Positions 1 to 64,000 of a stretch of 64,000 nt of DNA are shown piece after piece. The stretch lies in IMG/VR virus record IMGVR_UViG_3300023371_000005; one strand, given 5' to 3'. The notes below the pieces were generated by a model. It searched no databases. It had not been told where the DNA came from and saw only the letters and a program-made list of their open reading frames with translations. How positions within the stretch are numbered: the first letter of the stretch is position 1; each line of letters begins with the position of its first letter. The position numbers and the translations under genes are program-made. This DNA comes from a virus (lineage: Duplodnaviria; Heunggongvirae; Uroviricota; Caudoviricetes).

Positions 1-3000
1 TTTTTGAGTAGAATGGCGAAATCAAAAAGATGGATAACATTCTAAATGAAATGGCTGAAAAATGGGGAACTTTAGCGAAGGATCAACAAATTGCTTTAGC
101 ATAGACTGTTGCTGGCGTTCGTCAATATACTTAGCTAATTGCTTTAATGGATAACTGGAATGCTGGAGATTCTGATAGTATGACAGCTAACTTAAATACT
201 GCTTATAATGCCACTGGCACTTTACAAGAACAAGCAGATATTTATGCAGAATCTTGGGAAGCTGCAAAAGATAGAGTTACTGCAGCGGCAGAAGAAATTT
301 ATAACCAATTATTGAACGATGAATTTTTTATTGATTTAAATAATGGTTTTGCAGGTTTCTTAAATATTATCTCTGATACTATCGACACTCTTGGTGGATT
401 ACCTGGAGTACTTACTGTTGCATCTAGCCTCATGATTAAAATGTTTGGTAAAGATATGGCAAAAGCGATTGATGATTGGGGATATAATATTAAATTGCGC
501 TCTAAAGAGGGCGTTTAGTCTTTAATGGAGCTTAGAGAGCAAGCAAAAAATTCTTTAAAAACAATGTATGCAGATAATGTAGACACTGGTCCTATAAATT
601 CTGCATCTCAAATTGCTTTCAGTGAATATGCTTCTTTAACAGATGTAGTATTAGCAAAACAAAAAGAATTAACTGCTCAAGGTTAGATGCTTTCAGAAGA
701 AAATCAAAAGCAAGTTCAATATTTATTACAAGCAAATGAAGCATATGGAGAGCAAGCAATTCTTGCTGCAAAATCTTTAGAGGCAGCTGAACAGTAGACT
801 CGAGAAAATGAGATGCAATTAAGATATGCTGTTTAGAAGCAAAATACAAAAAATCCTGAAGACAAAAAAGTTGATTTTAAAACAACTTTAAAACCTCAGA
901 TTGATGAAGCTCAAAAAGCTTAGATGTAGTATTCTTCTTTGTATGATGTTTTTTTGAAATTAAAACAATTACAAAATAAAGGTTTAGATAGTGCAACAAT
1001 AATTAAAGAACTGACTGAAATGAGTAATTAGGCTAAAGCGGCAGGCCTTGATATTTCACATTTTGATGCCATTTTACACTCTTTAAATAACGGAGATAGC
1101 GTAGTAGTTACTTTAAATGCAATTGAAAGCAATTTAGATGATCTTGCATTGGAAGCTTTAAATACTGCAGAAACTGTTAAAAATTCTTTAACTGGAATGG
1201 GAATGGATGGCACTCAAGTTGATGCAATTCTTGATTAGTTAATTGAATCTTGGAGACAGCAAGGTATTGTTACTGCGGATTTAGCAGAAAAATTAAAAAA
1301 TATAAAAGTTAATGGAGATGCTGCGGCAGAAGCTATTAGTGGAATGCAAGGTCCTCCACCAACTGTCGGCCAGAAATTTATGGCAGTTGCAAATACAATT
1401 AGTAATATTGCTATGAGTATTAATGTAGTAAAAGGATTAATTGATACTTGGAATAATGAAGATATGAGTTTTGGAGAGAAATTACTTTCCACTTTTACAT
1501 CTCTTGGAATGGTTATTCCAATGGTTACAACTGCTTTTACTGGAAACAATCTTGCAATGTTAGGTAGTGTTTCTTCTTCTATTGTTGCAGCAGCAGGTTT
1601 TGATGGTGTTGCTATTTCTGCAAAAGTTGCTGCAGGTGGTGTTGGAGCATTGTGGGCAGCTTTATGGCCTATTGCATTAGTAGTTGCAGGCTTGACGTTA
1701 GTAATTACTGCATTAGCAGCTGGAGTAAAATATTTATCTGATGAATATAATAAAGATGCTATTGCTGCTAACAAAGCTGCTGAAGCAGCAAATAATTTGA
1801 AAGAAGCATATGAAGAAACTAAGAAATCTTATGAAGATATGATTTCTGCTATGGAAAATTATCAAAGTGCTAGAGACAGTCTTGATAATTTAACTAAGGG
1901 TACTGAAGCATATCGAGATGCCTTAAACGGAGCGAATGAAGCAGCTTTACAATTAATTAAAGCTGGTAATTTGATTCGTGGAGAAGATTACGATATTGTC
2001 GGTGGAGAAATCATTATTAAACAAGAATCAATTGATGCGGCTAAAGAAAATCAATATGGAAAAGTTCAAGAAGCATATGCTGCAAGTACAATGGCAAATG
2101 CAAATGCTAGTCGTTTAAAAGCTGAGGCAGATCAAACTAAACTTACTCGAACTGATGATAAATCTATTTGGTAGGGCGTAGTTGAAGGTATGGTCACAGG
2201 AATGGCTGCAATGATGATTACTGGTAATGCTCCAGCAGTTTTAGCAGGTGCATTAACGGGTGGAGTTGTTGGAGCTATTGATACTGCTCTTATAAATAAA
2301 GCTAGTAATGAAGCACAACAAAAACAAATTGATGATTTAGTAGCTCTTTATGATGAAATGGGAGAAGCTGCTTTTGATTCTGTAGAACTTCAAAAATTAG
2401 GCATTGATACTGCTAATGAAGAATATATTAATTCTTTAAAAGAAATTGTTCGTGCTACCCATCAGGCTGCAGAAGAAATGGAAGTCGCCGCTGAGTTAGC
2501 CGCAACCTCTATTTTGAGTCAAGATGAGCGTTTTGCAAAGTCTCAAGATAGTGAAGAATTATATGCAGCAAGTGGAGAAATATATAATAAATTATATCAA
2601 GATAATTTAAAAAAATATCAAGAAGTTGATATTGCCAATTGGGTAGGAGCTGGAACTGAAGATGCTAAAGATTTATGGAATAAATATTTAGAGGCTTCTG
2701 GCTTAGACGAACTAAGAGGAATTAAAGCCACCAATTTTAGAAAAGATAATACTGTTGACTATGAGTATTATGATGAAGAGGGTAAGAAGCAAGAAGCTAA
2801 TGTTGATTTGGCTACAATGGCTGCGGCAGTTGCAGCTGCAGAAGCAAATAATTTATTAGCTGATTCAGCAAATGTATTACTAGGAATATTTAATGAATTA
2901 AATAATTCTGGTAATGAAGCTGCTTAGGCATTAAAAAATATTATCGCTTATGAAAATGTTGAAAAATCAACTAGAGCTGAGTTTGATGATTTAAAAAATG

Positions 3001-6000
3001 AATATGAATCAGCAGAAGATAAAACTGCTTATTTAAATGAAGCTTTTGGTGGTGCTGATGGTGTTATTGATGAAGCTGAATTAAAGGCTTTGGGGTATGA
3101 TTCCATAGAAGCTTTATAGGCAGGAATTGAATAGGCCATTGAAGATGGTGAAGATGCTTGGGATGATGTTGGTAAACATTTAACTAGCACTGCAAAAAAA
3201 GCATTTAAAAATTCTATGGATTCTGGTATTTTTGATGATTTGACTTTAGAACAAACTAATCAAATGGCAGATCTCTTCCAAGATGCTTTCGCCAAGGGTG
3301 GAGTTGAAGGTTTAGATTCTCTATAGAATAGTTTAAATGTAATGTTTGAGAAGTCTGGTCAAGATGCTGGAAAAATGGCTGCAATCTTAGCAAATGTTGA
3401 TTGGCAAACTACTAATATTGAAGATTTAACTGCAATTTTAGAAGACGCAGGCATTGAAACTGATGGTTTTGCTAATGAGCTAGAAAACTTAATAGACTTA
3501 ATGCAAGAGGGTCAAAACATTGGTTTTGACGGTGCGGCCGATATTTATAAAACTGCTCATGAGATTATTGATGATCTTAAAACTGGAGATACTATTTCTA
3601 GTGAAGATTATGATAATCTTAAAACTATGGGCATTAATATGTCTGACTATTTTGTTCAAATGGCAGATGGGTCTTATAAATTAACTGCTGATGCAAAAGA
3701 ATTCTATGATGTTGTTAATGCTAAAACTTTAGAACAATTCCAAAATAATATTGACGCTTTACGCGGTCAAAAAGCAGATGTAAATAATTTACAAAATAGT
3801 ACCTATGATAAGGATTCTATTGCTACAATGGATACTAATATGATAGGTATGATTAAACAAGATAATGATAAATTAGGAGATCAATTAACTTTCTTAAAAG
3901 CAATTGGTTCTGATTTAGAAAATCTTGATAGCTATATTCAAGAGATTGAAGCTGGTAGACAATTAACCCAACGTCAATTAAGAGAAATTCGCAACGAACT
4001 TGAAGAAAATGCTTGGCAATGGGATAATTTATCTCAAGTAACTGAAGGGTTTGATGCAGAAATCCAACGTAATATGGATGCATATGCTATGTCTGCAACT
4101 ACAGTTGGAGATTTAAATGATATGCTTCGCGAAGGATTAATTAATGCTGAAGCATATAATAAAGCAATTGAATCCGTAATGGATGTGGAATTTGAGGCTG
4201 AAGGGTTAGATGTAGAAGCCGCTAATGATGTAGCAGATGCTTTCCGTGAAATGGCAGATGCTGGTGAAGCAGGCACAGAAGCTTTAAAAGACAATGAAGA
4301 AGCTGTTAAAGATGCTACTGTTCGTTATATGGAACTTAACGAAGCTATTACTGATATTTATGATAATTATGATGATTATATAGATGTTTTAAAAGCAGCA
4401 AGAAAAGCTTCAACTCCTTTAGAAAAAGCTAACCTATTAAATGAAAAATCTGCTAGATCTTTAAGAACTTCTTTGGCAGGTTTGCTTGGCACTACAGAAG
4501 ATTTAATTGATGCAGATTTAATGGCAGCAATTAATCCAGCAGATTTCGAAGCAGCTGCAAACGGTAGTGTTGAAGCTATTGATAGAATTAGAGAGGCTTT
4601 TATAAAATTATAGATTGAAGGTATTGATGGAATTACACTTGATGGCTTAATGGCTGAATTAAATGCATTTAATGATGGTGCTTATATTGATTTAGACAAT
4701 ATGCCAATGCTATGGTCTTTAATTGAAGCAAAGGTTGCCGCAGGTGCAACTGCAGCTGACATTGAAGCTTTGTTAAGTGGTTTGAACATCGATGCTGATG
4801 TTAGTGATTTCTATGGTACGATGGAAGAAATGGCAGCTATTGCAGAGCAAGCTGGTTCTCGTGTAGTACAAGCTACTTCTTTCTCTCAAACATCAACGAC
4901 TGAAACTGAAGCTACTCCACGTACAGTTGATAATGTAAATTTCACTGAAACTGTTACAACTACTAATCATCCGTCTATTGCGGCAGTGCCTATGACAAAT
5001 GGTTTTGGACCATTAATTTATGGTACTAATATGGTTAGTTATTAGAAGTCTGTAAGTGTTGATCCAGTAAGTTATCAAACTCAAGATACTGCAACTGCTA
5101 CTGAAGTTGTCACTGAGAACGCTGCGGGTGAAGAAGGTAAAGTTCGTGGTATTTAGATAAATGGTGCTCATAAAGCTCCAACTGCTTCTAGAACTCCAAG
5201 TCCAACTAATACAACCAGAAAACCTGTATCATCAGGCAGTGGCGGTGGTGGTAGTAGTGGTAGTAAAGCAAAAGAACCTTCTAAACCAAAATAGATGGAT
5301 ACCACTAAACAAACTGATGTAGTAAAAAGATATAAAGAAATTGATGATGCGCTTGATGATTTATCTGATGAATATGATAGAGCTTCTAAATCTGCAGATA
5401 GATTATGGGGCGAACATCGTTTAGATGCTCTTCGTGAACAAAATGCTTTAATTGAAGAGTAGCAAGAATTGTTAGCTGAAAAATAGCGTCAAGCAGAACG
5501 CTATATGAAACAAGATCAAGTTGCTTTACAATAGGCTGCAGCTGCAGCGGGATTAGCCTTCTCATTTGATGATAAAGGTAATATTACTAATTACACTGAC
5601 TAGATGACTGTCCTTTATAATCAGTTAGCTGCCGCAGAATCTCGTTACAATTCTCTTGCTACTGGTGAAGCTCAAGAGTCTTATGAAGAAACTATTCTTG
5701 ACCCTCTAAAAAATAAGATCCAAAACATTGAAGATGCAATGGAGTTATACGAAGAGAGTAAAGAATTATTTGAAGAATTGGGTATTAACATTGAAGATCT
5801 TCAAGATTAGATTATGCAAAATAATTATGATATTATAATGGACGGTTTAGAGCTTCATATTGGTTTTAATGAAGAAGATTTAGAAATAATTAATTATTAT
5901 TTATCTAAGATTGAAGATGATTTTTATTCTATGGCTGAAGCTGCTGCTTTAATAGCAAATCCAAAAGGAAATAGTCAATTGACTGAGTATATTTCTAATT

Positions 6001-8312
6001 TAGAAGAATATGAATCTTCTCTTCAAGGATTAAATAAAGCTTATGTCGCAGGAGAAATTACTGAAGCAATGTATCAAGAAGGCTTAGAAGAAGTCCGTTC
6101 TGGTATTAGAGATAATTTAAGTTCTTTAGTTGAATTAGATAATACTATGAAAGAGTATTATAGTAAAACTCTAAATATGGCCTAGGAAGAATTAGCGAAG
6201 TATACTGACCGTATGGAGCATCAAACTGAAGTTCTAGAACATTATCAATCTTTAATGGAAATTCTTGGCAAAGAAACTGACTATAACGGTTTAGGAATTA
6301 TTCTTGAAGGTCAAGCAAAAACTATTGAAAATCAAATGAAGGTTGCTAAAGAAGCATATGCTATGTATCAATCTGAAGCAGATGAAAAGAAGAAATTGCT
6401 TGATTAGGCTATTGCCACAGGAAATACTGAAGCTGCAGAAGTATATCAGAAAGAATGGGAAGCTGCTAATGCTGCTGCCATGGAAGCTCAACAAGATATG
6501 CTTGATAAAACTGAAGAGTGGGCTGATGCATTACGAGCAATACTGGAGAATAAACTATCTGGTTTCGCTCAAAATTTAGAGAACGCTCTGACCGGAGGCA
6601 CATCTTTTGATACTTTAACTACTTCTATGGAGCGAGCAGCTAGTCTACAAGAAGAATATTTAACAACGACTAACCAAATTTATGAGACTAATAAGTTGAT
6701 GCGCGTTGCACAGCAAGCTATTGATAATTCCACTAGTAGTATTGCAAAGCAAAAACTAAAAGGATTTATTAATGAAACTAAGCAATTGCAAGATCAAACA
6801 AAGTTAAGTAAATACGAGTTAGAAATTCAGCAAGCAAAATATAATTTATTATTGGCTGAGATGGCTCTAGAAGATGCTCGTGATGCGAAAACTGTTGTTA
6901 GATTAAAGCGTGATAATGAAGGCAATCTTGGTTATGTATATACCGCAGATCAAGATAAGTTGGCCGAAGCGCAACAAGAGTTAGAAGACGCACAAAATAG
7001 TTTATATAATATTGGATTGGAAGGCGCTAATGAATATAGTGAAAAGTATCAGCAAACCATGAGTGAAATGTATGATACATTTACTGAACTCCAAGAGCAG
7101 TATTTGAGTGGTGAATTCGAAACTGAAGCTGAATATCAAGATGCTATGTTAAAAGCTAAGGAATATTATTATGAAAAATTGAAGAGTTATTCTTCTCTGC
7201 ATCAAATAGCATTGACTACAGATAGTCGAGTCATTGCAGATGCTTGGTCTTCTGATTATAGCGAAATGATTTTCAATACTGAAGATTGGATGCGCGCAGT
7301 TACTGAATATGTTGGTAATGTAAATCTTGCATTTGACGAATGGGAAGAAAATGTTGATACTATTACTAATGAGACTCTTGGACCAAATCTTGATACTCTT
7401 GAAGATAACGTTAAAGATATTACAGATGCTAATGATGCTTTAACTGATTCTATCGTAAAAGATGGCGGCGTTATTGACGCTATTGAGTCTGAATTGGATC
7501 AAGTTAGTGAATTGACTGGTAAATACGCTAATTTAAGACAATAGATTCAGGGACTGATTGCGGATCATGAAACTCTTATGGTACGTATTGGCAATGAACC
7601 TAATCCTTACACTCCTCCTGGAACTGGTACTTCTGGAAGTTCTTCTTCTAGCGGAGGTAGTAGTGGAAGTTCTAATTCTGGTAATTCTTCTAGTGGTAGT
7701 GGTCGAGGTTCTAGTACAGCAAGCACATCTTCTGGAACTAGTACTAAAGAAGCAAGTGCTCCAGAATATAGTGACACTACTAAGCAAGGAGTTGCTCTCG
7801 CAATTTGGAATGGTGGTTTTGGTTGGGGTAACGGTACTACCCGCCGCAACCGGTTGGATGAAAAAGGATTTGATCCCGAAGAAATCCAGCGTATTGTTGA
7901 TATTACTAATCCTAATGGAGATTGGCGTACTCGTTATGGAATTTCTGACTTAAGTAAGTATGCTTATTCTAGTTTTGATACTGGTGGTTATACTGGAGCT
8001 TGGGGTTCTTATGGTAAGTTCGCTATGTTACATGAAAAAGAATTGATTTTGAATCCAGGTGAAACTGAAAACTTTTTAGCAAGTATGGAAGTATTGCGTA
8101 GTATTATCAAGATGATTGACTTACAAAGCACTGCTTCTCAGCTAGGTGGATTGTTACATAGTCCTGGATATTACGCTCCTCAAACTTCTGAGGTATTAGA
8201 GCAAAATGTTCATATTGAAGCTAGCTTCCCTGAAGTAACTGATAGATATGAAATTGAAGCTGCTTTGACTTCTATCGTCAATCGTGCTTCTCAATACGCT
8301 AACCGTAAATAA
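1..8312 (+). CDS. Giant tail tape-measure-like protein, 5' partial, >2770 codons. One continuous frame with about 30 in-frame TAG read as sense, ending at TAA 8310-8312.
   Basis: All track ORFs 147..518, 1344..2174, 2190..2927, 3342..4613, 4650..5045, 5604..5810, 5814..6185, 6213..6407, 6480..7544 and 7578..8312 share one frame (start mod 3 = 0) and are separated only by single TAG codons. Long coiled-coil A/E/K-rich repeats. Hydrophobic TM-like segment (VGALWAALWPIALVVAGLTLVITALAAGV). Ser/Gly-rich linker near the C-terminus. Confidence 0.55.
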
Positions 8313-8318
8313 ATTTTT

Positions 8319-45940: not shown

Positions 45941-45945
45941 ATTAG

Positions 45946-46967: not shown

Positions 46968-46972
46968 GATGA

Positions 46973-47980: not shown

Positions 47981-48009
47981 ATCAAGACCTCCTTTTACTC
48001 TTTATACTA

Positions 48010-48038: not shown

Positions 48039-48499
48039 ATTATACGCTGGTTGCGAGAGCCTCTCATTTCTAGAGTCAAATCTCGCTCTGCTTCAATATA
48101 TGGACCGTCGATTAGGACGTCCGCTAATTCCAGACATGATTTGACATGAGGGTCGCCAGACCGCAATAATTCTTCATAAGTGTAGCCGCTCCAAATATAT
48201 ATCTTCACTTCTGGAAGCTTATGTCTTACCTCTTGGAGAATCAAATTTACCAGAAAAGCATTTGCTTCACACAAAGGTTCACCGCCCATAATACATAAAT
48301 TACGCTTGATTCCTTGTGCGGTTAGTCCTTCTAAAATCTTATGTAAAGTATTATTTGTAAACTCCTTACCTCCATCAAAGGCCCAGGTGCCAGGATTATG
48401 ACACCCAGGACAATGATGAGGACAGCCTTGTGTAAAAAAGCTTACACATAAACCTGGAGCAGCGGTGATATCATTTAGTATCAATCCACTGTATCTCAT
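48017..48499 (-). CDS. nrdG: Anaerobic ribonucleotide reductase activating protein (radical SAM)
   Basis: CPHHCPGCHNP radical-SAM cysteine motif. About 160 aa. Adjacent to nrdD. Confidence 0.7.
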   Translation of the reverse strand: MRYSGLILNDITAAPGLCVSFFTQGCPHHCPGCHNPGTWAFDGGKEFTNNTLHKILEGLTAQGIKRNLCIMGGEPLCEANAFLVNLILQEVRHKLPEVKIYIWSGYTYEELLRSGDPHVKSCLELADVLIDGPYIEAERDLTLEMRGSRNQRIIDLHKKN

Positions 48500-48546
48500 A
48501 GTTATCTCTCTTTCTTATAGCGTAGCTAAGTTGTAGTTAGCAACAG

Positions 48547-50751: not shown

Positions 50752-50773
50752 ATATATTACCTCCAATTAAAAA

Positions 50774-50794
50774 CCCTACATCTTGTGTAGAGGG
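50774..50794 (-). terminator. Weak intrinsic terminator between the NMP kinase gene and nrdD
   Basis: On the - strand: CCCTCTACA-caaga-TGTAGGG, a short imperfect stem followed by TTTTTAATT. Confidence 0.35.
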
Positions 50795-50838
50795 CAAAAT
50801 TTCTCTACTAAATATGGGTTTATGGATTGATCACTTAA

Positions 50839-51405
50839 TCAATCTCGTCCTTGGGCGAATGTGGTCTCGGTCTGGTACACAATCTCTTCAGGGCCAGTCC
50901 AACCGTCCAATTCAGTGGCGTTTCTAATTTCAAAAAATGGGAAATCAATCTCGCCAAAATCAGAATAGTCAGCTAAGAAGCGACGACAAACTTCCTTGAC
51001 GTCAGGATCTTCTTCTCGATTCAACTGACGCATTAGACGCAACTTATCGGGCGTCCGCAAACGAATAGCTAGAACTTCACAATCCCCACGAGCCAAGAGA
51101 TCATGGATGCCTTGAGGATTGAAAACTCCAACATTGATATTATCTTCAACCACAGACTCGGTACTTGTGCCGTAATACCAATTATTGAACATTACACATT
51201 CAAGCATTTGGTCATTGTTAATTTTTTCTTTGAACTCATCCATTGTGTGATAAAAATAATTCACACCATGCTGTTCACCCTGTCTCATAGGACGAGTAGT
51301 ACAGCTAATAATTTTATGCCAGTCAGGTCTCATAGCGAGGACCTTATTCAACATAAAGTCCTTGCCGGAGCCTGCCTCGCCAAACAAAGCAACGATTTTA
51401 TACAT
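50839..51405 (-). CDS. Guanylate-kinase-like nucleoside monophosphate kinase. Start at internal ATG 51405 (MYKIVALFGEAGSGKDF).
   Basis: P-loop GEAGSGKDF. TTRPMRQGEQHGVNYFY...YYGT matches the guanylate kinase TTRxPRxGE..G.dY.F...YGT pattern. GAGGA RBS before 51405. Abuts the stop of the upstream Zn-ribbon ORF. Confidence 0.6.
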   Translation of the reverse strand: MYKIVALFGEAGSGKDFMLNKVLAMRPDWHKIISCTTRPMRQGEQHGVNYFYHTMDEFKEKINNDQMLECVMFNNWYYGTSTESVVEDNINVGVFNPQGIHDLLARGDCEVLAIRLRTPDKLRLMRQLNREEDPDVKEVCRRFLADYSDFGEIDFPFFEIRNATELDGWTGPEEIVYQTETTFAQGRD

Positions 51406-51406
51406 T

Positions 51407-51601
51407 TTATTCATCCTCGAACTCATATTCAATACTGCCATTTTTAGTAGTGCTTGTTGTAGTCGTTCCGCAATTCAAACACTCATAGCAGTGCTGTGCA
51501 GGATAAGTACAGAGTGTATGAGTGCAACGCATGGGCTTACCGCACTCTTCACAGACAATCTGCACAACATACATAGCTTTTACTTTTCTTTTTTGGATCA
51601 T
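51407..51601 (-). CDS. Small Zn-ribbon protein, 64 aa
   Basis: CEECG...CTH...C and CYECLNCG cysteine pairs. Immediately downstream of dnaE. Confidence 0.45.
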   Translation of the reverse strand: MIQKRKVKAMYVVQIVCEECGKPMRCTHTLCTYPAQHCYECLNCGTTTTSTTKNGSIEYEFEDE

Positions 51602-54600: not shown

Positions 54601-55567
54601 GCAATAAATCCCAAAGATTATCATAAAATGGAACTTGAACTTTAGGAATAATCTGCTTACGCTCCAAAGAGTAATCTTCAATTTTACTCTGAGCTTCTAA
54701 GGTCGCCGCAAAAATATCATCAATATCAACATCACTAAATGACTTTGACAATAATGTTCGACACTCTTCTGGACTCATTAAATATGCGAACTCATAGAAG
54801 TCATCAACTTCTCGTTCACCATCTTTTGAGTTCAAATAAGATTTATGGACAAATCTATCTTCTTTTGTCAAATAATGAGAGTCAGTACCAACAACCATAT
54901 TGATACCATATGCTTTCGCAATTCTCATTAGTTTGCGGTTGACCTCACATTGTTGACTTGCGCTTGAGGGAGCGCACTCAATATAAAAATCATCACCAAA
55001 CAAGCCTCGACAATAATCAATAAAATCGCAAATCTGGTCATAATAAACCTTTGCGTTTACCATATCATTTACTCGTTCAGCCTGCGACATATTCCAGGCG
55101 GCGGTAGATAATTCACCACCAAGACAAGCAGAGGTCGCAATTACATGGCCACGATATTTGCTAATGATTTTAGTCATTTCTTCTTTCGTGATTGGCACAC
55201 GCTTCATACCTCTATCAGTATAAGCGTAATACCATGCAATAGAACTCAATTCACGAAGTGCCTTATGTCCGATGGCATCCTTCGCAACTAAAATAAAGTG
55301 ATAATATTTTATACCACTTTCTCGTTTATCTACTAAATAAACCTCATTGCCTAAAGCGATTTTGAAGTCGGGATGGTTCTTTTTAACTTCCTTCGCATAT
55401 TGATTTACTTCCATATGACCACTAATACATTCATGGTCAGTAATCGCAATGCCAGAAAGACCCAACTCAATCGCTTTGTCAATGAGGTCTTTTGGTCTAT
55501 TGATACAATCGAGCAAGCGGATATTAGAATACATAGTATGATTGTGAATATTGAAGTAAGTTGTCAT
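51602..55567 (-). CDS. dnaE: DNA polymerase III alpha subunit (DnaE-type) with an N-terminal PHP domain, 1321 aa
   Basis: PHP motif FNIHNHTMYSNIRLLDCINRPKDLIDKAIELGLSGIAITDHE. Length and architecture of bacterial Pol III alpha. GAGG RBS. No TAG. Confidence 0.75.
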   Translation of the reverse strand: MTTYFNIHNHTMYSNIRLLDCINRPKDLIDKAIELGLSGIAITDHECISGHMEVNQYAKEVKKNHPDFKIALGNEVYLVDKRESGIKYYHFILVAKDAIGHKALRELSSIAWYYAYTDRGMKRVPITKEEMTKIISKYRGHVIATSACLGGELSTAAWNMSQAERVNDMVNAKVYYDQICDFIDYCRGLFGDDFYIECAPSSASQQCEVNRKLMRIAKAYGINMVVGTDSHYLTKEDRFVHKSYLNSKDGEREVDDFYEFAYLMSPEECRTLLSKSFSDVDIDDIFAATLEAQSKIEDYSLERKQIIPKVQVPFYDNLWDLLPEDIQWDSYQWPTLDRIICAGNDQERYWLGECLKSMHEKGFIDKREYWDRLETEADVIDDIGRKLEDCLFAYFNTFKHYIDLFWECGSIVGPGRGSATGFLSNYLLGITQLDPVRWKLPYWRFLNKERAELPDIDIDLAPSKRPEIFRRIRKERGELGLIQVGTFGTEGTKSAILTACRGYRSEDFPDGIDVDQAQYMSSLIPQERGFLWSIDDVVNGNESKDRKPVVAFIREVNQYPGLLNIIKSIDGLVNKCSSHASGVILYGDDPFDTAAFMRTPSGDLITCYDLHKAEAAGDTKYDFLVTEISDKIIKCFELLVADKVIPDLSLRELYNKYIHPEVMDTTDQRIWDHLAAGDVLDVFQFSTGVGLAIAKKLKPQNPMEMTAANAMMRLMSEKGKESQQDRYVRIQRKGLTEFHREMVQAGLDSNMIALMHKHCDQYWGCCAIQEQMMELLMDVAGFTLGEANTARKIVGKKQMSKIPQLREDVYSRFDHVNSANYFWENAVAPQLGYAFSLNHSLPYSFVGMQSIYLAMNFNPIYWNTACLIVNSGSLEDNSEEEIVDIYEPEGQDLSEGVTFQDLPDRSGKIRKTASTDYGKIAKAIGDIRAAGIKVSLVDINKSQFGFAPDVENNRILFGLKGMLNVGDDVIAAIIANRPYASPKDFLQKVKPGKQAMISLIKGGAFDDMEDRRFVMAWYLWETCDKKSRLTLQNMGGLIKHGLLPESTEEQIMARRVYEFNRYLKAITKADECAYKDMYSLDPRAISFLHEIECEDLMESDNLAWFIKVKTWDNVYQKYMNIFRNWIATDKEEILEALNTKIFMEDWEKYAQGSISAWEMEVLCFYYHEHELAHVNNDKYGFVDFFALPEDPVIEKTFKKGDKEIHIFHLNRICGTCIAKNKTKSTVTILTNTGVVNVKFRKEYFTLFDKQISARQPDGTKKIMEKSWFNRGNMIVVTGIRSGDDFISKKYASTGGHQLYKIDKIYPNGDLKLLDARYQGDE

Positions 55568-55602
55568 TCTATTATCCTCTTTCTTTTTACTTATTATACT
55601 AT

Positions 55603-55631
55603 ATTATATCAATTTTTTTTATGTAAGTCAA
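55603..55631 (-). promoter_or_regulatory. Sigma70-like promoter on the - strand in front of dnaE. Copy 2 of the duplicated element.
   Basis: TTGACT (55631-55626), identical 17-nt spacer, TATAAT (55608-55603). Confidence 0.6.
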
Positions 55632-56755
55632 TCTTTGGTGACAATCACCAATTTCTCTGCCGCACGAGTGGCCGCAGTGTATAACCAACGAGCATGATCA
55701 ACGGGCTGGAAGGGGAACTTTTCTTCCAGAACCAAGACGTTATCCCATTCAGAACCCTGCGCTTTATGACAGGTAATGGCATATCCATAAGTAAATTCCT
55801 TTGGCACAACATCGCCAATACGATTTTTTAGCTTATTCAGCTTATACTTATCACGCCATTCAAGCTCGCTTTCGCCGCCCTTCATAATGCGAGGGTCCAT
55901 ATTGATATGACCATAATTCTCACCTAAGTCAGATTCAAATACACCAGTAAGGATATTGATCTTACCCTTCTCATAAGCGTAAAACGGGACATTGATATGA
56001 CTATACTTGGGATCATGTAATGTTCCAATAGTGCCATTTACCAATGGGTCGCCGTTAGTCAAATTACCCCAGTCCCAGTAATTCCGCAGACAAATAACTT
56101 TATCTCCTTCTTCTGGCTCAGGTCCAAAACCTCGTTGCTGACGCATGAAATCATTCATACTGTGCCGTTGTAGATTAGTCGCAACAAGAACCTGGTCTGC
56201 CCAATCAAGCATTCCGGTATTGAGCGCGCTGGCTGGATAAATTTGAACTTGGTCATTCTTTATATATTCCAAAGGCTTCTGGTCTCGAATATCCATAGTC
56301 AAACGGATAATACCAGATTCAGTAGCCTGTCTCATAATTTCATCAAGGAAGATATGAGGATGGTCAAGCAAATGATTATCCTCGTCTTTCTCAATGGGTG
56401 GCAACTGGAACGGGTCGCCAAGACAAATTACATATACATTATGGGAGAATAATTTATCCATAATACTCTTGGGCGCCATGGACACCTCATCAACCACAAC
56501 GACTGTATATTCCAAAGATTTCTTTGGGATTCTAGTAAATCCACCGCCTGGACGAGGCACGCTATCATAAAGCAGACGATGTAGAGTCATTGCGTTCTTA
56601 TTGCCCTTCTTAGCTAGAACCTGGGCGGCCTTGCCTGTAAAAGTAGCAAAGCAAACTTTATTATGTTCTACATCTAATGCTTCAATGATAAATTTTACCA
56701 GAGTGCTCTTTCCTGTACCTGCCTTTAGGCGTAGCCAGCAATCACAGTGTACTTT
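55628..56755 (-). CDS. Dda/RecD-like SF1 helicase. The track ORF 55628..56590 lacks Walker A. The motif lies in frame upstream as far as an in-frame TGA at 56758-56756. No in-frame start codon was found in that 165-nt stretch.
   Basis: In-frame upstream extension reads KVHCDCWLRLKAGTGKSTLVKFIIEALDVEHNKVCFATFTGKAAQVLAKKGNKNA-MTLHRL... (compare T4 Dda GPAGTGKTTLTKFIIEAL). Downstream motifs VVVDEVSM, GDPFQLPPI, YAITCHKAQGSEWDNV and YTAATRAAEKLVIV. Confidence 0.55.
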   Translation of the reverse strand, partial: KVHCDCWLRLKAGTGKSTLVKFIIEALDVEHNKVCFATFTGKAAQVLAKKGNKNAMTLHRLLYDSVPRPGGGFTRIPKKSLEYTVVVVDEVSMAPKSIMDKLFSHNVYVICLGDPFQLPPIEKDEDNHLLDHPHIFLDEIMRQATESGIIRLTMDIRDQKPLEYIKNDQVQIYPASALNTGMLDWADQVLVATNLQRHSMNDFMRQQRGFGPEPEEGDKVICLRNYWDWGNLTNGDPLVNGTIGTLHDPKYSHINVPFYAYEKGKINILTGVFESDLGENYGHINMDPRIMKGGESELEWRDKYKLNKLKNRIGDVVPKEFTYGYAITCHKAQGSEWDNVLVLEEKFPFQPVDHARWLYTAATRAAEKLVIVTKD

Positions 56756-56781
56756 TCATGTGCTCTGTGTCTGGCTACGGC
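56728..56781 (-). other. Strong composite hairpin enclosing the in-frame TGA and a 5-codon mini-ORF (ATG AAA AGT ACA CTG TGA) at the 5' end of the helicase gene
   Basis: GGCGTAGCCAG-caat-CACAG-(17-nt loop)-CTGTG-t-CTGGCTACGGC on the + strand. The helicase-frame TGA sits inside the loop. No U-tract follows on the - strand. Confidence 0.5.
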
Positions 56782-56816
56782 AATTTTCAAACCTTCTTCT
56801 TGCTTTCTTGTAAGAA

Positions 56817-57377
56817 TCACAGTTCTACTTCCTCTCTTTCTTCAATATTCAAATCTTCAATATTCCATAGATTATCATGTAGTTCTTTATGACAATTAGA
56901 ACAAATTAAAATACATTTTTTACTTTCTTCTACTGCTTCTAATAAGTGAAAATGGTCATTGCTAATTGTAAAATCTTTTTTAGAGGGGTCAATGTGATGA
57001 AATTCTAATGCTTTTATACATCTATCATATCCACATCTTATACATTTTCCACCACGAGATTCTTTTATTTTAGCTAAAAACATTCCTCTCGTTAATTGAA
57101 CTCCATTTGGCATACAGTTATAACAACAGGTTCTTTGATGAGCCGTAGAAGTTAAAGGATAAAATTCTTTTCCACAAATGGGACAAATTTTTGGTTTTCC
57201 TTTATAAGAAGTATCTTTTTGATTCTTTTCTTTATTGGCGTATTTTTCTCTGCGCGAAGCGTTTTGACATTCTATACTACAGTATTTTTTAGTAGAACGG
57301 ATTGCCTCAAATTCATTTCCACACATAACACATTTATTTATCATATATTTTCTCCTTTTTTGAAATATTTCTTTCAT
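56817..57377 (-). CDS. HNH endonuclease with N-terminal CxxC zinc-ribbon repeats. Likely a homing-type mobile endonuclease. Probable true start at the internal ATG 57344.
   Basis: C-terminal HHIDPSKKDF...NDHFH...CSNCHKELH HNH motif. Several CxxC pairs. AAAAGGAG RBS 8 nt before ATG 57344. TGA stop. Confidence 0.65.
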   Translation of the reverse strand: MKEIFQKRRKYMINKCVMCGNEFEAIRSTKKYCSIECQNASRREKYANKEKNQKDTSYKGKPKICPICGKEFYPLTSTAHQRTCCYNCMPNGVQLTRGMFLAKIKESRGGKCIRCGYDRCIKALEFHHIDPSKKDFTISNDHFHLLEAVEESKKCILICSNCHKELHDNLWNIEDLNIEEREEVEL

Positions 57378-57468
57378 TATATTTCAAAAATAAGACAAGT
57401 AAATTCGTCAGCTTTGTCCGGAGTTTTACACAACGAACTTACCTAACCAAAGTTGCACAAGCAACTTA

Positions 57469-57702
57469 TCAATCATGCTCTCCTATTGCTTCATCTAAAA
57501 TCTGAATAAAACGCATCATATCTCGTTCATGCCTACGTATGACAGCCTCATGTGCTTTTGGTTCAGAGAACCCTTTACACTTCATCAATTCAATTTTGTC
57601 GTGTTCAAAGGCTTTTGCCTGGTATTCCTTAAAACGGAATACCAGACTATCAAACATATAACCCTTTAAATGCTTATTATCACTAAAATGTACTTTTTCC
57701 AT
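57469..57702 (-). CDS. Hypothetical protein, about 77 aa. The track ORF 57469..57798 is trimmed to the internal ATG that has an RBS.
   Basis: Extended -10 TGGTATAAT (57730-57722) and an AAAAGG RBS upstream of ATG 57702. TGA-TAA tandem stop. Confidence 0.4.
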   Translation of the reverse strand: MEKVHFSDNKHLKGYMFDSLVFRFKEYQAKAFEHDKIELMKCKGFSEPKAHEAVIRRHERDMMRFIQILDEAIGEHD

Positions 57703-57739
57703 ACTAATACCTTTTATTTTTATTATACCAAAATATTTC

Positions 57740-58069
57740 TTATAAATCAATAAGGAACATATTGTTGTCCAATTTAAGAAAATCTTCATCCCACTCAATT
57801 TGGGGAAAAATTTCTAAATCGCTTTTTTGTTTTGGGTTTTCGGCTGGCGCGTCTGGCACCGGTCGGATGGCGTCTTGGAGAGCAATTATATTGGCAATAG
57901 CATTGCTTATCGCTCTTTCAAGTTCATCGACTCTACATTCAAGCACTCGAAAAGAATCACTCAATGTAGTTGCAGTACTAGCCATATCACAAGTTAGCAT
58001 ATCAACTCTATCTTGGATTAGATCAACCATGTACTTTGCGCCATCAGCAGTTAATACTTGTAATGCCAT
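57740..58069 (-). CDS. Hypothetical protein, 109 aa
   Basis: Continuous ORF with a GGAGGA RBS. Confidence 0.4.
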   Translation of the reverse strand: MALQVLTADGAKYMVDLIQDRVDMLTCDMASTATTLSDSFRVLECRVDELERAISNAIANIIALQDAIRPVPDAPAENPKQKSDLEIFPQIEWDEDFLKLDNNMFLIDL

Positions 58070-58078
58070 ATATCCTCC

Positions 58079-59872
58079 TTAGAAGTAATACTTCTGTTCA
58101 CCAACAATTTCATAATCCTCAATAATAATTTGAGGAGAAACACTTCCGTTCCAGACATTGCGTTCACATTTGCCAACTACATTGATGGTGATACAACCCA
58201 TCTCACTCTTCAACTTCTCATATTCTTCTTGAGAAGATTTGAATTTGATAAGACTTGTGCCATTTGGTAAAGTGATCTTCAAAGTAGGACTCTTATCGGG
58301 AGACATGAGCACAATATTACCGCTTGATACATTGATATGTTCAATAGCAACAAATGGTTCATCAACGCCTTGACCCCAAAGAGATTTCAAACCAGCAATC
58401 TCAATGATATCACTACCTCTGAAATCTGCTCCACTGAAAATGAAATCAACTTTATAACAAGGAGTAAAATCAAACTCAGCCAAAGCCTTATTTGAATACT
58501 CCACAAATTCAGAAAATACTTTATCGTAAATGCCAACGCCGAGCGCATTAGCATGGCCTTCCGCATACATTACCAGGCCACTATTTTGTAGGAACTGGCG
58601 CAAATTATCAAACTTAGATTTATCATAACCACGACCAGAGCCTTCCCAGCTTTGCTCCTGTAAAGTCATAATCTTCTTACCATTGGTATCAAATATGTCT
58701 TGCTCAGTAATTGTCTTATTCAGTAGTAAAACTGGACGCTGGTATTTAGCCATAAGTTGGTTGGCGATAAGACCGGTTAGATTGCGATCCGCAGAAAAAG
58801 AATCCAGCTTGATTGCCAGAATTTTATTCTTCAATAAATCTTTTTGCTTGATAATAGCTTCAATAGTCTCAAGCGCAGCATCTCTTGCCTTAGTCTGACG
58901 ATTTTTGATATTCGTACAATTTCGGCACGCCTGCTCTACGCGAGTTTCTTGCTGACCCTTACAGCCTCTCTTGGTTGAAGGAATTAGCTCATATCCACGA
59001 TAATCTAACATCGATTCAAACATCAATAACTTTTCCTCTTGGCTACCCATTCGGATAGTAGCATTGACATATGGAGCAACATAGAACGCAATACCAATAG
59101 GAGTGATACCGTCCTTTAGCGAATACTGTTGCTTATCAACCATGCCTTTGAAATAAGGATTTCTGATATTTTGTAAGCCACGATGAATTAAATGCTTGGT
59201 TTCAAAATCTCTCAAATCCATCATATCGGCAATCATGCCAAGAGCAACCAAATCAAGAAACTGATCGGCATAATCAACATTCATAAGTTCGTCAATATAA
59301 GAACAAAACTTATAAACCATGCCGACACCAGAAAGAGATTTAGTTGGATAATCACATAGCTGGTTATTGATAACGCAAGCATATTCGCTAACTTTTTCAG
59401 CTTCGTGGTGGTCAATAACCAGAACATCTACTCCACGCTCATGGAGCTTTTTATGTTCTTCATAATCATTTGAACTTGAGTCTGGCGCAATTACCAACTT
59501 TACATCAGCTGGAATTGTATTGAGAATAATACCATGTTCTTTACCATTATGGATGCGGTAATAAACATTATTCTGAACATATCCAGGAAATAGGCAGTTC
59601 AAATAATTGATTAGTGTTGCCGCTGAAGTGTAACCATCACAGTCGCTATCAATTTGGATTAGGATCTTGTGTCCTTGCGAGATGTGATAAATCAACAGCT
59701 TTACACCCTACGCGATATTCGCAATAAGGGAGGGTGCTAAAATGTCTTCATCAGTTGTATTTAGATAATGCTCAATTTTATCGGGTTCAATGCCACGATT
59801 TACGAGTACCTGTTCGACCGCAGATAAAACATCCTTGTGCGGGATGCGAGGTACTATTAGTTGATATTCCAA
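58079..59872 (-). CDS. recJ: RecJ-like DHH-family single-strand DNA exonuclease, about 597 aa, with one in-frame TAG (59710-59708) in the conserved N-terminus
   Basis: The track ORF starts at TTG 59695, but the frame extends upstream through the TAG. That gives EYQLIVPRIPHKDVLSAVEQVLVNRGIEPDKIEHYLNTTDEDILAPSLIANIA-TAG-GVKLLIYHISQGHKILIQIDSDCDGYTSAATL, which matches the RecJ N-terminal pattern LxxRGIxxxxxxxxFLxP...KILIxGDxDxDGxTS. DHH motif VLVIDHHEA. AAAGGAGG RBS precedes TTG 59872. Confidence 0.6.
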
Positions 59873-59898
59873 AAGAAATCAACCTCCTTTCATAATCC

Positions 59899-60243
59899 TT
59901 ACCACTCCTTAGGATAAAAAAATTCGTAGTGACGAGGACCAAAAGGACAGCAAAGGGTTCGTAAAATTACAAGATAACAAAATTCCTGAGATACACGAGC
60001 ATCAATCAAAGCATAATTGGCACGAATACCTCTACCGCTTTCATTTGCGGGAGCTACTCTCCAATAATCTCCATTTTCAAATTCAATAAATGAATTACTA
60101 CGGGAATATATTTCTCTAACTGGATTGATACCTTTCCAAATATATTCATCTCGGACGCATTTTAATTGTCTTACACCATCGCCTGCTCTATCACAGGACC
60201 AAATAACACCTTTTATCATTCTTTTTTCCTCGTTCCTGCCCAA
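59899..60243 (-). CDS. Hypothetical protein, 114 aa
   Basis: Continuous ORF. No recognisable motif. Confidence 0.4.
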   Translation of the reverse strand: MGRNEEKRMIKGVIWSCDRAGDGVRQLKCVRDEYIWKGINPVREIYSRSNSFIEFENGDYWRVAPANESGRGIRANYALIDARVSQEFCYLVILRTLCCPFGPRHYEFFYPKEW

Positions 60244-60548
60244 CGGCGCTTACCAATCTCATGTCCTTCTGGACACATGGTGGCCGCTTCAATATGTATT
60301 TCTTTCTCATACTCATAGGGTTCTAGGTAACCCATCAATGGATTGATGCAAGTTGTCTTTTCTTCTTCAAAAAACTTTGTATTACAATCCTTTTTATAGT
60401 ACCAGCGACCGCATCCACTACACCAGTTACCCTGCGCCTGAACATCAGTTTGAAGTTGAAGTAGCGCATCAAATGAATTAGCAATTACATTCATTCGCTC
60501 TTGAATGTCGTCGGGACCATTTTTGAATACTTCTTCTAAAATTAACAT
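60216..60548 (-). CDS. Hypothetical Cys-rich protein, 110 aa
   Basis: CSGCGRWYYKKDC ... C ... CPEGH cysteine cluster. Confidence 0.4.
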   Translation of the reverse strand: MLILEEVFKNGPDDIQERMNVIANSFDALLQLQTDVQAQGNWCSGCGRWYYKKDCNTKFFEEEKTTCINPLMGYLEPYEYEKEIHIEAATMCPEGHEIGKRRWAGTRKKE

Positions 60549-61651
60549 TAGAGAATTATCCTTTCTTTGAATAATTGTAAAAATATCTGCGGGCCGCAGT
60601 CGATCGGTGAGTCCTTGTATCCTGTAACCATATTCTTATCAAAGATAAAAGAAATTGTAGTAAAGTTCTTATATCTATCTCTTAGTCTGATTAGATTAGT
60701 TTTTAGGCGCTTATATTCAGCATCGCCAATTTCCTTGAACTGACGGTCAAAGGCAATGATTACTTCTTCGGCGCCCACATCCAAAAGCATCTGCATCTGG
60801 TGCGAAGATACACTTGAACCGCAACACGCAACAGAAATATCATTTTCCAAACCAAAATAAGATTTATATAATAAACAGGATTTCTCACCTTCAAAGATAA
60901 TAGCCTTTTTCATAAGACTAATATTATCTTTACTAAAATTGAAATTATATAAGTTCATGCCAAGAGGATGATTATATAATACTTTATTGATTTTTAGAGG
61001 TCTATACTTACCATACAACTCGCCCTCTTCTGCGCATACAGTTCGTCCGCGCAAACCAACAAATCTTCCATCCTTATCAAAGTGCGGGATGGTTATTTGA
61101 TCTCCTCCTGGATAAAAACCAATGCGAGCTTGGTCTAATGCGGCCTGGGAAATACCCTCCCGCAACCACGGGCCAATCTTCACCTTGTAGTTGAAGCGTT
61201 CCAATATGTCATTTTCATAATCTTTTAGTAAAATCGTATTAGACTTCACAGAGACTTCTTGAATACGCTCGTAGTTAGCAAGAAACTTCCAATCGTCTAA
61301 TGCTTCATCGTCTGGGCCATCTTCATGTTCGCCAGAAAATCCAAATCTTTGAGCGACCCACCTTACTGCGTCGTTAAGGTCAAAGTCTTTATCCCATTGG
61401 ATTTTCGCAACTTTGATGACTAACTCAAACGGGTCGAAATATTCGTCGCAACCAGTGAAACACTTGAACAGACCTGTATTCTCATAATAATACAATTTAC
61501 GACTACCTTCTCCAGGAGGATTGTGGCAGATAGTAGAAGAGGTGAGCCCGAACGATGTGCGTCCGGGATCACCGCCAAATTCTTGAAGTAAATCGTATAT
61601 ATAGTCAGTTGTAAGTGCTTCTCTGATTTTGACTTTATCAAAGACGAGCAT
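60548..61651 (-). CDS. dnaG: DnaG-type DNA primase with zinc-binding and TOPRIM domains
   Basis: CHC2-type zinc finger ICHNPPGEGSRKLYYYENTGLFKCFTGCDEY. TOPRIM-like IIFEGEKSCLLY. Confidence 0.65.
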   Translation of the reverse strand: MLVFDKVKIREALTTDYIYDLLQEFGGDPGRTSFGLTSSTICHNPPGEGSRKLYYYENTGLFKCFTGCDEYFDPFELVIKVAKIQWDKDFDLNDAVRWVAQRFGFSGEHEDGPDDEALDDWKFLANYERIQEVSVKSNTILLKDYENDILERFNYKVKIGPWLREGISQAALDQARIGFYPGGDQITIPHFDKDGRFVGLRGRTVCAEEGELYGKYRPLKINKVLYNHPLGMNLYNFNFSKDNISLMKKAIIFEGEKSCLLYKSYFGLENDISVACCGSSVSSHQMQMLLDVGAEEVIIAFDRQFKEIGDAEYKRLKTNLIRLRDRYKNFTTISFIFDKNMVTGYKDSPIDCGPQIFLQLFKERIIL

Positions 61652-61962
61652 TAGTTGATGTCAACAAGGACCTTGACGCAATAGCCCTTCAGACCGCACT
61701 CCTGATTTACATACTTACACAGGACTTCCTGGGGAGTGCCAGGCAACTTACCGCTCTTGGACTTAGCTGCCTTCAGAATCTCTTCTGCCATCAGCTTGCC
61801 CATCTTATACTCGATGGTGCCAGCACAAACATCGGGAGCGGGCTGACGAATGTCGCTCTTACTGCCGAAGTCCTTATTACGGGGAGCGTTGTTCTTATTG
61901 CGGTTGAAGTTACCCTTGGTCTTGTTATTTCTCTTGTTGTCATTCTTTACAAACTCTGCCAT
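61651..61962 (-). CDS. Small basic hypothetical protein, about 104 aa. Trimmed from the track ORF to ATG 61962, which has AAGGAG 9 nt upstream.
   Basis: Lys/Asn-rich N-terminus. Cys-containing C-terminus. Sits between the primase and DnaB genes. Confidence 0.4.
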   Translation of the reverse strand: MAEFVKNDNKRNNKTKGNFNRNKNNAPRNKDFGSKSDIRQPAPDVCAGTIEYKMGKLMAEEILKAAKSKSGKLPGTPQEVLCKYVNQECGLKGYCVKVLVDIN

Positions 61963-62041
61963 ATTATTTATCTCCTTTATATTTCCAATTCCAAAATCGG
62001 AATCGTGTAACAAATTTAGTTTAGCTCTCAACCCTCGTTGC

Positions 62042-63580
62042 TTAGTCGCACTCAAAGGCAGATTCTTCGTCGATTCTAATTCGTACATCATCAATACTTA
62101 CCATTTCATAATCATAGGTAGTGCAGAACATTGGCTTGATTCTACATACACCCAAGTCTGCCTTACACCACAAAATTACACCCTTGTATCTTCCTCGTCT
62201 ATTTTTGTAAACCGACATTTTGATTGTAGGTCTTTCAAAAACATTTGTAGACAAGATATTTTCCAGAGCAACAAGGTCATCGTCTTTTACCGCCAATAGA
62301 ATTGAACCATAGTCAATCTTATCCGCAATAGACTTAGCACCACGAAGTAGATTTTGGTCAGGAGTCTTACTGTCTTGATAATCGCCATTTAGCTGAGTAG
62401 CAGACATAATAAATACTCCATATTGATTACAAATATCTTTCAAACGAGTGGATAACATAAATAGAATATTATCTTCTCTCAATTTTACGCCGCCAGATCG
62501 ACGAGTAATTTCTTCCAAGATTTTTAGACTTGTATGAATATAATCATGGAAAATATATTTGACACCATGGTCGCGAATATTCTTCTTGATTTTATTCTCA
62601 ATATCCTGAAGAGAGAAGTCAGGAAGTTCTTCTACATAAATTGGACTCTCTTTTAAGAGTTTTGCGGCCTGAAGCACGCGCTCTTTTTCACCCTCGCCAT
62701 ATTCACTGTAAATGATATGTTCCTCATTTACATTAGACAAGAATGCCAACATCATAGTTTGAATTTCCTCAAGGTCCTGCTCTGTTGCGATGAATAGGAC
62801 TGGTTCCGCAGGACCGCTACCAATCCACCCGAAAGTTTCATCGTAAATCTTATTACAGCCAATATAACAGGCATCCGCAATCATTGAACGAGTCTTACCG
62901 ATACCAGTAGCCGCGGACCGCAAATAAAATTTCTTCAATCTTGCTCCACGAGTGACTGTATTTACCAATGGACCATATAATGGAACACCAGCTTCTGGAT
63001 GCTCAGCAAATCGTTCAATTAGTTCAAAAATACCTTCAGCGGCTTGTTGGGCCTCGCCAAAGGCGTCATCAACATACTGAAGTCGGATAGAGTCAATCTT
63101 GGCATCAACCTTGTCCGCAATCTGTTCCAGCGTCGCATTATCTAATTGGTCCTCCTGTAATTGTTTTTTCTTTGTATCTAAAATATTGTCGGCATCGTAA
63201 ATATCAGATACATCAACACCGCAATTATCATACGCACGAAGCAAAGAGAATTTCTTCAATCGTCCATAATAATAATCAAATGCTGATGGCATACAATTTT
63301 CTGATATTTTTAGTAGCCATTCTTCGCCCTTGCCTTGCTTATAGACTGCCGCACTCTTGGGGCGAGAACTGAAAAAGTCTGATAGACTTTCTAATGTGAT
63401 TTTATTTGCGCCAAGCTCATGGATTTTGTAAATTGCACCGAATACAGTTTTATGGAATGTATCAGCGAAATCTTCATCCACGATTGAATACTTATCAGTG
63501 ATTTCCAAAAGACGAGGATTATTGAACACACAACCAATAACCTGCATTACCGCAGTTGTATCAACATATTTGCTACCCAT
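62042..63580 (-). CDS. dnaB: Replicative DNA helicase, DnaB family
   Basis: DnaB N-terminal domain. Walker A SAATGIGKTRS. Walker B-like KYIFHDYIH. 512 aa. Confidence 0.7.
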   Translation of the reverse strand: MGSKYVDTTAVMQVIGCVFNNPRLLEITDKYSIVDEDFADTFHKTVFGAIYKIHELGANKITLESLSDFFSSRPKSAAVYKQGKGEEWLLKISENCMPSAFDYYYGRLKKFSLLRAYDNCGVDVSDIYDADNILDTKKKQLQEDQLDNATLEQIADKVDAKIDSIRLQYVDDAFGEAQQAAEGIFELIERFAEHPEAGVPLYGPLVNTVTRGARLKKFYLRSAATGIGKTRSMIADACYIGCNKIYDETFGWIGSGPAEPVLFIATEQDLEEIQTMMLAFLSNVNEEHIIYSEYGEGEKERVLQAAKLLKESPIYVEELPDFSLQDIENKIKKNIRDHGVKYIFHDYIHTSLKILEEITRRSGGVKLREDNILFMLSTRLKDICNQYGVFIMSATQLNGDYQDSKTPDQNLLRGAKSIADKIDYGSILLAVKDDDLVALENILSTNVFERPTIKMSVYKNRRGRYKGVILWCKADLGVCRIKPMFCTTYDYEMVSIDDVRIRIDEESAFECD

Positions 63581-63591: not shown

Positions 63592-64000
63592 TTATTCATC
63601 TAAAAATGTAAATAATTGACGCTTCTTGACTGTGCTCTGCGGTCTTGGGATAACAATCTCTTTGACTTTTGGAGTGTATAGTTCAATTTGGACGTCCTTG
63701 TTTTTCTGTTGAGTAAGCCATAAGTTATAGTGATAATTGTAAGCATCCTTATATACATAAGGCACAATACCAATACCACCATTTGCCTTCGACTTATCTC
63801 CGCCTTTTATTTCGTAATGATAGTATAATGCTTTTTGGATGCCCGAATAAGTATAATTATATTCCTCCACATATTTTTTGATTTGTGCTTTTACTCTTGG
63901 CTCGATAAAAGAAATTTGGAATAATTCTTTGATATAATCTTCCAACTTTTCTCGATCAGTTTTTTCACGATGCTCTTCTAAATCTTTACAAGCGGCGTGA
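63592..64000 (-). CDS. Hypothetical protein. The ORF stays open upstream to the window edge, so it is 5' partial.
   Basis: Track ORF 63592..63945 begins at a TTG. The same frame has no stop through 64000. Confidence 0.35.
   Translation of the reverse strand, partial: HAACKDLEEHREKTDREKLEDYIKELFQISFIEPRVKAQIKKYVEEYNYTYSGIQKALYYHYEIKGGDKSKANGGIGIVPYVYKDAYNYHYNLWLTQQKNKDVQIELYTPKVKEIVIPRPQSTVKKRQLFTFLDE

Follow-up and report, generated by a model that had tools for sequence, protein, structure and literature searches.

Gene organization of the window

The DNA analyzed here, hereafter referred to as the window, is the 64,000-nucleotide stretch of the IMG/VR record IMGVR_UViG_3300023371_000005, from a phage of the class Caudoviricetes, and our subject is the codon TAG, which occurs in frame in the late tail genes of this phage and corresponds there to glutamine (Gln). 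The window coincides with positions 80,953-144,952 of the ENA metagenome contig ERZ27248370 k141_2695036 (202,962 bp), and its guanine plus cytosine (GC) content is 36.8%. With TAG taken as a sense codon, 43 genes span approximately 95% of the window and form two modules, a plus-strand tail module (1-45,376) and a convergent minus-strand module of replication and nucleotide metabolism (45,423-63,580); the large terminase gene is positioned outside the window. There are 69 in-frame TAG codons, distributed over 13 of the 43 genes, and no in-frame TAA or TGA. These TAG codons are conserved and confined to particular modules (Table 1). Related loci from other assemblies are designated below by the letter L and a number.

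Table 1. Positions of genes and regions of the window, with their in-frame TAG codons (aa, amino acids)
Feature	Position	Strand	In-frame TAG	TAG/(TAG+CAA+CAG)	Remarks
Tape-measure gene, C-terminal 2769 codons	1-8312	+	28		Frame open from 3 to 8312, ends in TAA; L038 homologue with Pfam PhageMin_Tail
Tail protein, 1861 aa	8428-14013	+	6		Ends in TAA; collinear homologues in L038 and L040
Tail or baseplate protein, 948 aa	14467-17313	+	5		Ends in TAA; 94% identical to L038 homologue
Baseplate-like protein, 965 aa	17313-20210	+	9		Ends in TAA; phrog_32343, phrog_1887 tail protein
Coiled-coil fibre-like protein, 718 aa	20592-22748	+	5		Ends in TAA
Tail genes as a region	1-22,748	+		0.18
TAG-free block, seven late genes including a 2156-aa BspA-type leucine-rich repeat (LRR) protein	22,812-37,448	+	0	0/149	149 CAA+CAG; Fisher p = 3e-11 versus tail genes
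Five large tail-fibre-like genes of the TAG-free block	22812-24299, 24314-25735, 25756-27885, 28011-34481, 34770-36782	+	0		28011-34481 (2156 aa) is the largest complete gene in the window
Two fibre-like genes, 701 and 724 aa	37,600-41,912 (37600-39705, 39738-41912)	+	5 and 3	0.24	Both end in TAA
Small genes closing the plus-strand module	42596-45376	+	1-3 in each of four	0.10 (41.9-45.4 kb)	With TAG: 42596-43030, 43041-43295, 44487-45068, 45065-45376
Replication and nucleotide-metabolism module	45423-63580	-	2	0.009	DnaB, RecJ, SF1 helicase, PolIII alpha (YorL-like), guanylate kinase, NrdD, NrdG, dUTPase, RuvC; Fisher p = 3e-12 versus tail genes
RuvC-like resolvase	45946-46431	-	1		TAG at codon 120 (46072-46074), before the C-terminal D..D motif
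RecJ-like exonuclease	58079-59872	-	1		TAG at codon 55 (59708-59710), before the DHH motifs
Interruption of the SF1 helicase gene	56690-56830	-			8 extra bases inside the P-loop
Cys-rich open reading frame, 175 aa	56817-57344	-			CxxC…CxxC

Occurrence of in-frame TAG codons

The terminators of the 43 genes are TAA (33 genes) or TGA (10 genes), and none is TAG. An earlier note on this DNA, made from the sequence alone, had described seven large plus-strand frames as open when TAG is read as sense and closed by TAA, and this description was confirmed for all seven (the tail and fibre genes for which Table 1 gives a TAA end). Taken together, the coding frame of these recoded genes contains 61 TAG and neither TAA nor TGA, as opposed to 390 and 1124 TAA plus TGA in the other two frames, and chance can be excluded as the source of the 8.3-kb tape-measure frame, because TAG is the only stop codon that interrupts it. 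The same TAG codons recur in independent assemblies from other samples and are therefore not errors. One such locus (L008) matches the window without a single difference over an overlap of 10.5 kb and reveals that the first gene of the window is, in full, a tape-measure gene of 3129 codons with 36 TAG.

Standard-code gene callers cut these genes into many pieces, as would be expected for pseudogenes, truly split genes or sequencing or assembly errors, but we give this explanation practically no credence: the frame statistics already refute it, since the frames are interrupted by TAG only and never by TAA or TGA, the TAG codons are identical in independent assemblies, the homologues are collinear across the TAG sites, at which TAG alternates with CAA or CAG, and the affected genes are essential tail genes. 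The earlier note had excluded pseudogenes and split genes on the grounds that conserved domains of RuvC and RecJ extend across a TAG. For RecJ, this was borne out by an alignment with PDB 8y30, which extends from query residue 19 to 589 and runs across the TAG at residue 55. For RuvC, it held weakly: the Pfam match (residues 4-94, 20 bits) is under the cut-off of 22.2, and a weak alignment with 1hjr (E = 0.22) puts the catalytic D..D motif after the TAG. At the position of this RuvC codon, the relatives have CAA (9), CAG (4), GAA (4) or TAG (6), such that CAA or CAG accounts for 13 of the 17 codons other than TAG.

Distribution and context of TAG codons

The extent of the recoding had been overstated in two respects. 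TAG was said to be a sense codon throughout the genome, but it is used in only 13 of the 43 genes, and the 20-gene replication module contains two such codons, one each in RuvC and RecJ, versus 213 CAA plus CAG, being otherwise compatible with the standard code. Nor is every large plus-strand structural gene affected, since in-frame TAG is missing from five large genes located between 22,812 and 36,782. The CAG/(CAG+CAA) ratio is 0.14-0.20 in the TAG-carrying genes, versus 0.46-0.50 elsewhere, which fits with CAG to TAG transitions.

The complete lack of TAG terminators would also be expected if the code of the host itself gave TAG a sense meaning and the phage merely conformed to it. We know of no Firmicutes with such a code, and this explanation is very improbable, because the replication genes avoid TAG. 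Moreover, phages matching a recoded host carry in-frame recoded stops in approximately 90% of their genes (Borges et al., bioRxiv 10.1101/2021.08.26.457843), and the sole hint concerning the host comes from relatives binned in metagenome-assembled genomes (MAGs) of Clostridia, one of them of the Acutalibacteraceae.

The base 3' of the 69 in-frame TAG codons is A in 33 cases, G in 21, C in 11 and T in only 4. T is depleted at this position with respect to both Gln codons (p = 0.0013) and true stops, 20 of 43 of which are followed by T (p = 5e-7), suggesting selection for read-through in competition with release factor 1 (RF1). This context resembles that described in the studies by Bossi and Miller, in which a purine-rich, T-poor 3' base is said to favour suppression over RF1.

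The TAG-free block of seven late genes has a GC content of 0.377, versus 0.343 in the neighbouring tail genes, and CAG is frequent among its Gln codons, which is not the case in its neighbours. Its BspA-type LRR protein is probably a receptor-binding fibre. The L038 homologues of the genes of this block have one or two TAG where the window has CAA or CAG. The block could come from recombination with less recoded relatives or from selection.

The extent of recoding also differs widely among the close lineages L183 and L177 (87-89% on YonB). In L183, three genes of the head or neck region contain 12-16 TAG each and the tape-measure gene contains 33 within its first 850 codons, as compared with 0-9 TAG in the corresponding upstream genes of the strain of the window.

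Amino acid specified by TAG

The amino acid corresponding to TAG was assessed by a codon test restricted to real sense codons found in related DNA opposite the TAG codons of the window, with substitution frequencies taken from the same alignments. Of 93 residues, 45 were Q, 13 E, 11 R, 5 K and 5 T, together with a few others, and the log-likelihood of the assignment was -198 for Gln, the next best being Lys (-345). In the comparison with a relative with 92-94% identical proteins, the window TAG codons were paired with TAG (8), CAG (7), CAA (3) and non-Gln codons (6), and genuine CAG and CAA codons were paired in a similar manner to TAG. In the gene at 14467-17313, the five TAG sites of the window correspond to two TAG and three CAG in L038. 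In the baseplate-like gene at 17313-20210, the conserved Gln columns at aa 101, 291 and 341 correspond to real CAA or CAG codons in the relatives; at column aa 874, TAG was present in all four relatives read at the DNA level, and the assignment of Gln to this column is presumptive. The reading of TAG as Gln proposed in the earlier note is therefore supported by the comparison of codons with relatives, by the fact that no gene ends in TAG, and by the strong accumulation of this codon in late genes. Judging from these alignments, TAG acts as a third glutamine codon with a fast turnover, and TAG, CAG and CAA replace one another rapidly among strains.

In a first tally, the four TAG columns of the baseplate-like gene were Gln in 111-120 of 120 database homologues. 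This tally was dropped as primary evidence, being partly circular, because recoded relatives had entered the collection with TAG already rendered as Q (code 15). This public protein collection uses code 15 for some relatives (L038, L039 and L040, with full-length proteins of 965 and 3128 aa) and the standard code for the phage's own contig (L001 and L008), which yields fragments. Since it mixes codes, Gln at the TAG columns of database homologues may be an artefact of gene calling.

At some TAG sites the relatives have E, R or K, as they might if TAG did not specify Gln but another residue, for instance Glu, Lys, Tyr, Trp or pyrrolysine. Such an assignment is improbable, given that the likelihood strongly favours Gln, that exchanges with the closest relative are dominated by the TAG to CAG transition, and that E, K and R are the usual replacements of genuine Gln codons in the same alignments. 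Pyrrolysine decoding was rejected as the TAG sites match Gln; no pyrrolysine-linked Pfam family was present among the window proteins scanned, which were not all of them, and no tRNA was found in the window. A-to-I editing was also rejected, because it would yield Trp rather than Gln.

Affiliation of the phage and its host

The best cultured relatives of the PolIII protein are SPbeta-group Bacillus phages, with 38.7% identity over 99% of the length, and the SPbeta-specific Pfam families YorF, YorH, YonB and YomU_Tube are present in the flanking DNA. No GenBank phage was matched in a megablast search with 11.7 kb, an exact 33-mer search of IMG/VR found no occurrence, and a locus search for which the baseplate gene served as the single protein query returned nothing. 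Several features suggest that the host belongs to the anaerobic gut Clostridia. The phage has NrdD and NrdG, and the Shine-Dalgarno motif was found at 35 of 41 gene starts, in agreement with the strong signals noted previously. Related contigs have been assigned to a MAG of the Acutalibacteraceae and to one of Clostridia that comes from the abomasum of roe deer, and more distant relatives (approximately 72% on YonB) are carried by contigs whose titles name the human gut metagenome. The genomes of the relatives are 170-210 kb in size. On the basis of these sequence data, we consider the phage to be a distant SPbeta-like phage of anaerobic gut Clostridia with a genome of about 200 kb, the relationship being distant and below genus-level membership.

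Decoding of TAG and a possible code switch

We think it likely that this SPbeta-like Clostridia phage uses TAG as a glutamine codon (code 15) in its late tail genes, keeps its replication genes readable with the standard code of the host, and relies on a later switch that either decodes amber codons or neutralizes RF1. Early genes would be expressed under the standard code; an amber-decoding activity would then arise, or RF1 would be neutralized, and full-length tail proteins could be produced only after this switch. Both the temporal switch and the decoding agent are elements that we infer, with the timing of the genes deduced from their presumed functions. Decoding must be nearly complete, because the tape-measure gene contains 36 TAG: by our own arithmetic, with 90% read-through per site, the yield of this protein would be approximately 2%.

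Several results weigh against this proposal. ARAGORN, for which a positive control worked, did not detect a single tRNA, be it in the window, in the 10 kb on either side of it or in the loci of close relatives, which tile most of their 170-210 kb genomes except for the stretch between L267 and L270. The related loci searched amount to 4.7 Mb and were reached by a walk outward from the two ends of the window and then through the relatives via gyrA, PhoH, the next gene, YonB, FolD, an exonuclease-like gene, a 184-aa protein and a DEDD exonuclease. The only tRNAs found were clusters in distant relatives, with Gln(UUG), Met and Leu(UAG) and none with a CUA anticodon. No Rfam family reached the gathering threshold in the window or in the related loci scanned, which amount to about 250 kb and tile the relatives, and tblastn with Escherichia coli RF1 and glutaminyl-tRNA synthetase (GlnRS) gave no credible match in the window or in any of the loci. 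Finally, about half of the non-TAG codons opposite the window TAG codons are not Gln codons, and encode mostly E, R and K at variable sites. The phage suppressor tRNA(CUA) that the earlier note had put forward as the agent was thus not found in the window, its flanks and most of the genomes of the relatives, nor was an RF1/RF2 or GlnRS-like gene found in the 4.7 Mb; the precomputed Pfam lists contained no release factor or aminoacyl-tRNA synthetase, and only a YqeY domain protein in the relatives.

These absences agree with a decoding of TAG without a phage suppressor tRNA, either by a near-cognate host tRNA-Gln once RF1 is neutralized or translation altered, or by an amber suppressor of the host. 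We regard this as unlikely, albeit not negligibly so. The purine-rich, T-poor context after TAG fits with RF1 competition, and relatives have a stand-alone YqeY (GatB-like) domain protein; this putative YqeY protein, however, sits among NAD-salvage genes, the genome gap between L267 and L270 could hold a tRNA, and 36 TAG in a single gene require very efficient decoding. We know of no natural phage system that uses near-cognate reading of TAG, although the literature was not searched for one. Suppressor tRNAs have been detected in only 40% of TAG-recoded genomes (Borges et al.). A more speculative version would be that these SPbeta-like Clostridia phages of approximately 170-210 kb read TAG efficiently as Gln with no suppressor tRNA, release factor or synthetase of their own, by means of a novel phage factor that disables RF1 or recruits the host tRNA-Gln; we hold this to be rather doubtful. 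If tRNA-free reading is true, the lineage would provide a tractable example of the approximately 60% of recoded phages for which the mechanism of code change is unknown.

Outside the region corresponding to the window, the relatives carry several further genes (L270 7200-9478 and 17320-17802; L272; L277), encoding a Thg1-like tRNA-repair enzyme, an RNA ligase, a sigma-70 factor, the stand-alone YqeY, an NAD-salvage cluster and a major-vault-protein-like protein. YqeY, which is similar to the C-terminal part of GatB and of a tRNA-Gln-binding type, was the only hint found toward translation or tRNA-Gln. In the more distant loci L105, L112 and L132-L148 (61-63% on a 366-aa protein), the tRNAs form a conserved cluster Gln(UUG)-Met-(Ile/Cys/Phe)-Leu(UAG), at the position of which the close relatives carry the vault-protein-like gene.

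Comparison with known systems

Recoded phages of this type were reportedly described by Ivanova et al., and accessory genes for code change, such as RF2 or an aminoacyl-tRNA synthetase, occur occasionally in phages using code 15. The phage studied here shares with the code-15 gut phages (crAss-like, Lak, Jade, Sapphire, Agate, Garnet, Amethyst and Topaz) the in-frame TAG at Gln positions, recoding mostly in structural genes with replication genes largely standard, a low GC content, the avoidance of TAG as a terminator, and differences between close genomes in the number and position of recoded codons. It differs from them in that searches covering most of the genome revealed neither a suppressor tRNA nor RF2 and in that a late block of 14 kb is free of TAG. 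The module-restricted pattern is as reported by Borges et al., whose model has early genes that the host code can read and late genes that depend on a switch, and TAG to Gln has been confirmed by proteomics in crAss-like phages (Peters et al., PMC9523058). The earlier note considered such recoding to be rare in phages with Firmicutes-type signals, but this is contradicted by Borges et al., who report several recoded clades predicted to infect Firmicutes, including some with sizes of 150-210 kb. The larger of these clades match our phage in genome size (about 200 kb) and Firmicutes-type host; the clades are defined by a terminase tree, and the terminase lies outside the window.

With SPbeta, phi3T and their relatives, the phage has in common a replication module with PolIII alpha (YorL), the YorF, YorH, YonB and YomU-tube families, a large genome and a tape-measure gene of great length. 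SPbeta phages are not known to depart from the standard code. The PolIII protein is only 38.7% identical to theirs, there is no nucleotide similarity, and our phage has a Clostridia-type gut host and NrdD/NrdG. Classical amber suppression by a supE-type tRNA-Gln (CUA) likewise reads UAG as Gln; laboratory suppressors are inefficient and act genome-wide, whereas our phage requires almost complete decoding, which is apparently limited to one stage of the infection. The phage phAss-1 (proposed Phassvirus; PMC10607447) is a gut phage of more than 100 kb with TAG in many hallmark open reading frames, as here, and with three suppressor tRNA genes, none of which has a counterpart in our data. There was no evidence that the two phages are related, no INPHARED record being near the PolIII of our phage.

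The kind of code switch considered here has already been described; what is new is its association with a distantly SPbeta-like lineage and the lack of an identified code-change gene over most of the genome. This lineage, found in ruminant and human gut metagenomes, joins the phages with TAG to Gln recoding in late genes and, if the absence holds for the complete genome, would be a good place in which to seek the mechanism of the switch. Standard-code annotation breaks the tail genes into dozens of fragments, even on the phage's own public contig, and gene calling with code 15 is therefore needed.

Other features of the window and related loci

The SF1 (superfamily 1) helicase gene of the window and of L001-L004 has 8 extra bases inside the P-loop (…GGC TAC GCC TAA AG GCA GGT ACA GGA AAG…), an interruption found only in the four assemblies of the window's strain, and the gene is intact in L005-L007, where it encodes 402 aa. 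A hop of peptidyl-tRNA-Ala from GCC over the TAA to GCA would restore exactly the intact protein (GYA-GTGKST); alternatively, the insertion could be a simple inactivation of the gene. The Cys-rich open reading frame directly upstream of the helicase gene, which overlaps it in a GTGA stop-start arrangement, is absent from the same position in L005-L007 and may be a mobile or homing-type insertion. An identical sequence of 50 nucleotides was also observed in two distant intergenic places in the relatives (L267, 908-957; L095/L096, 15372-15421), and may be a repeated regulatory element.

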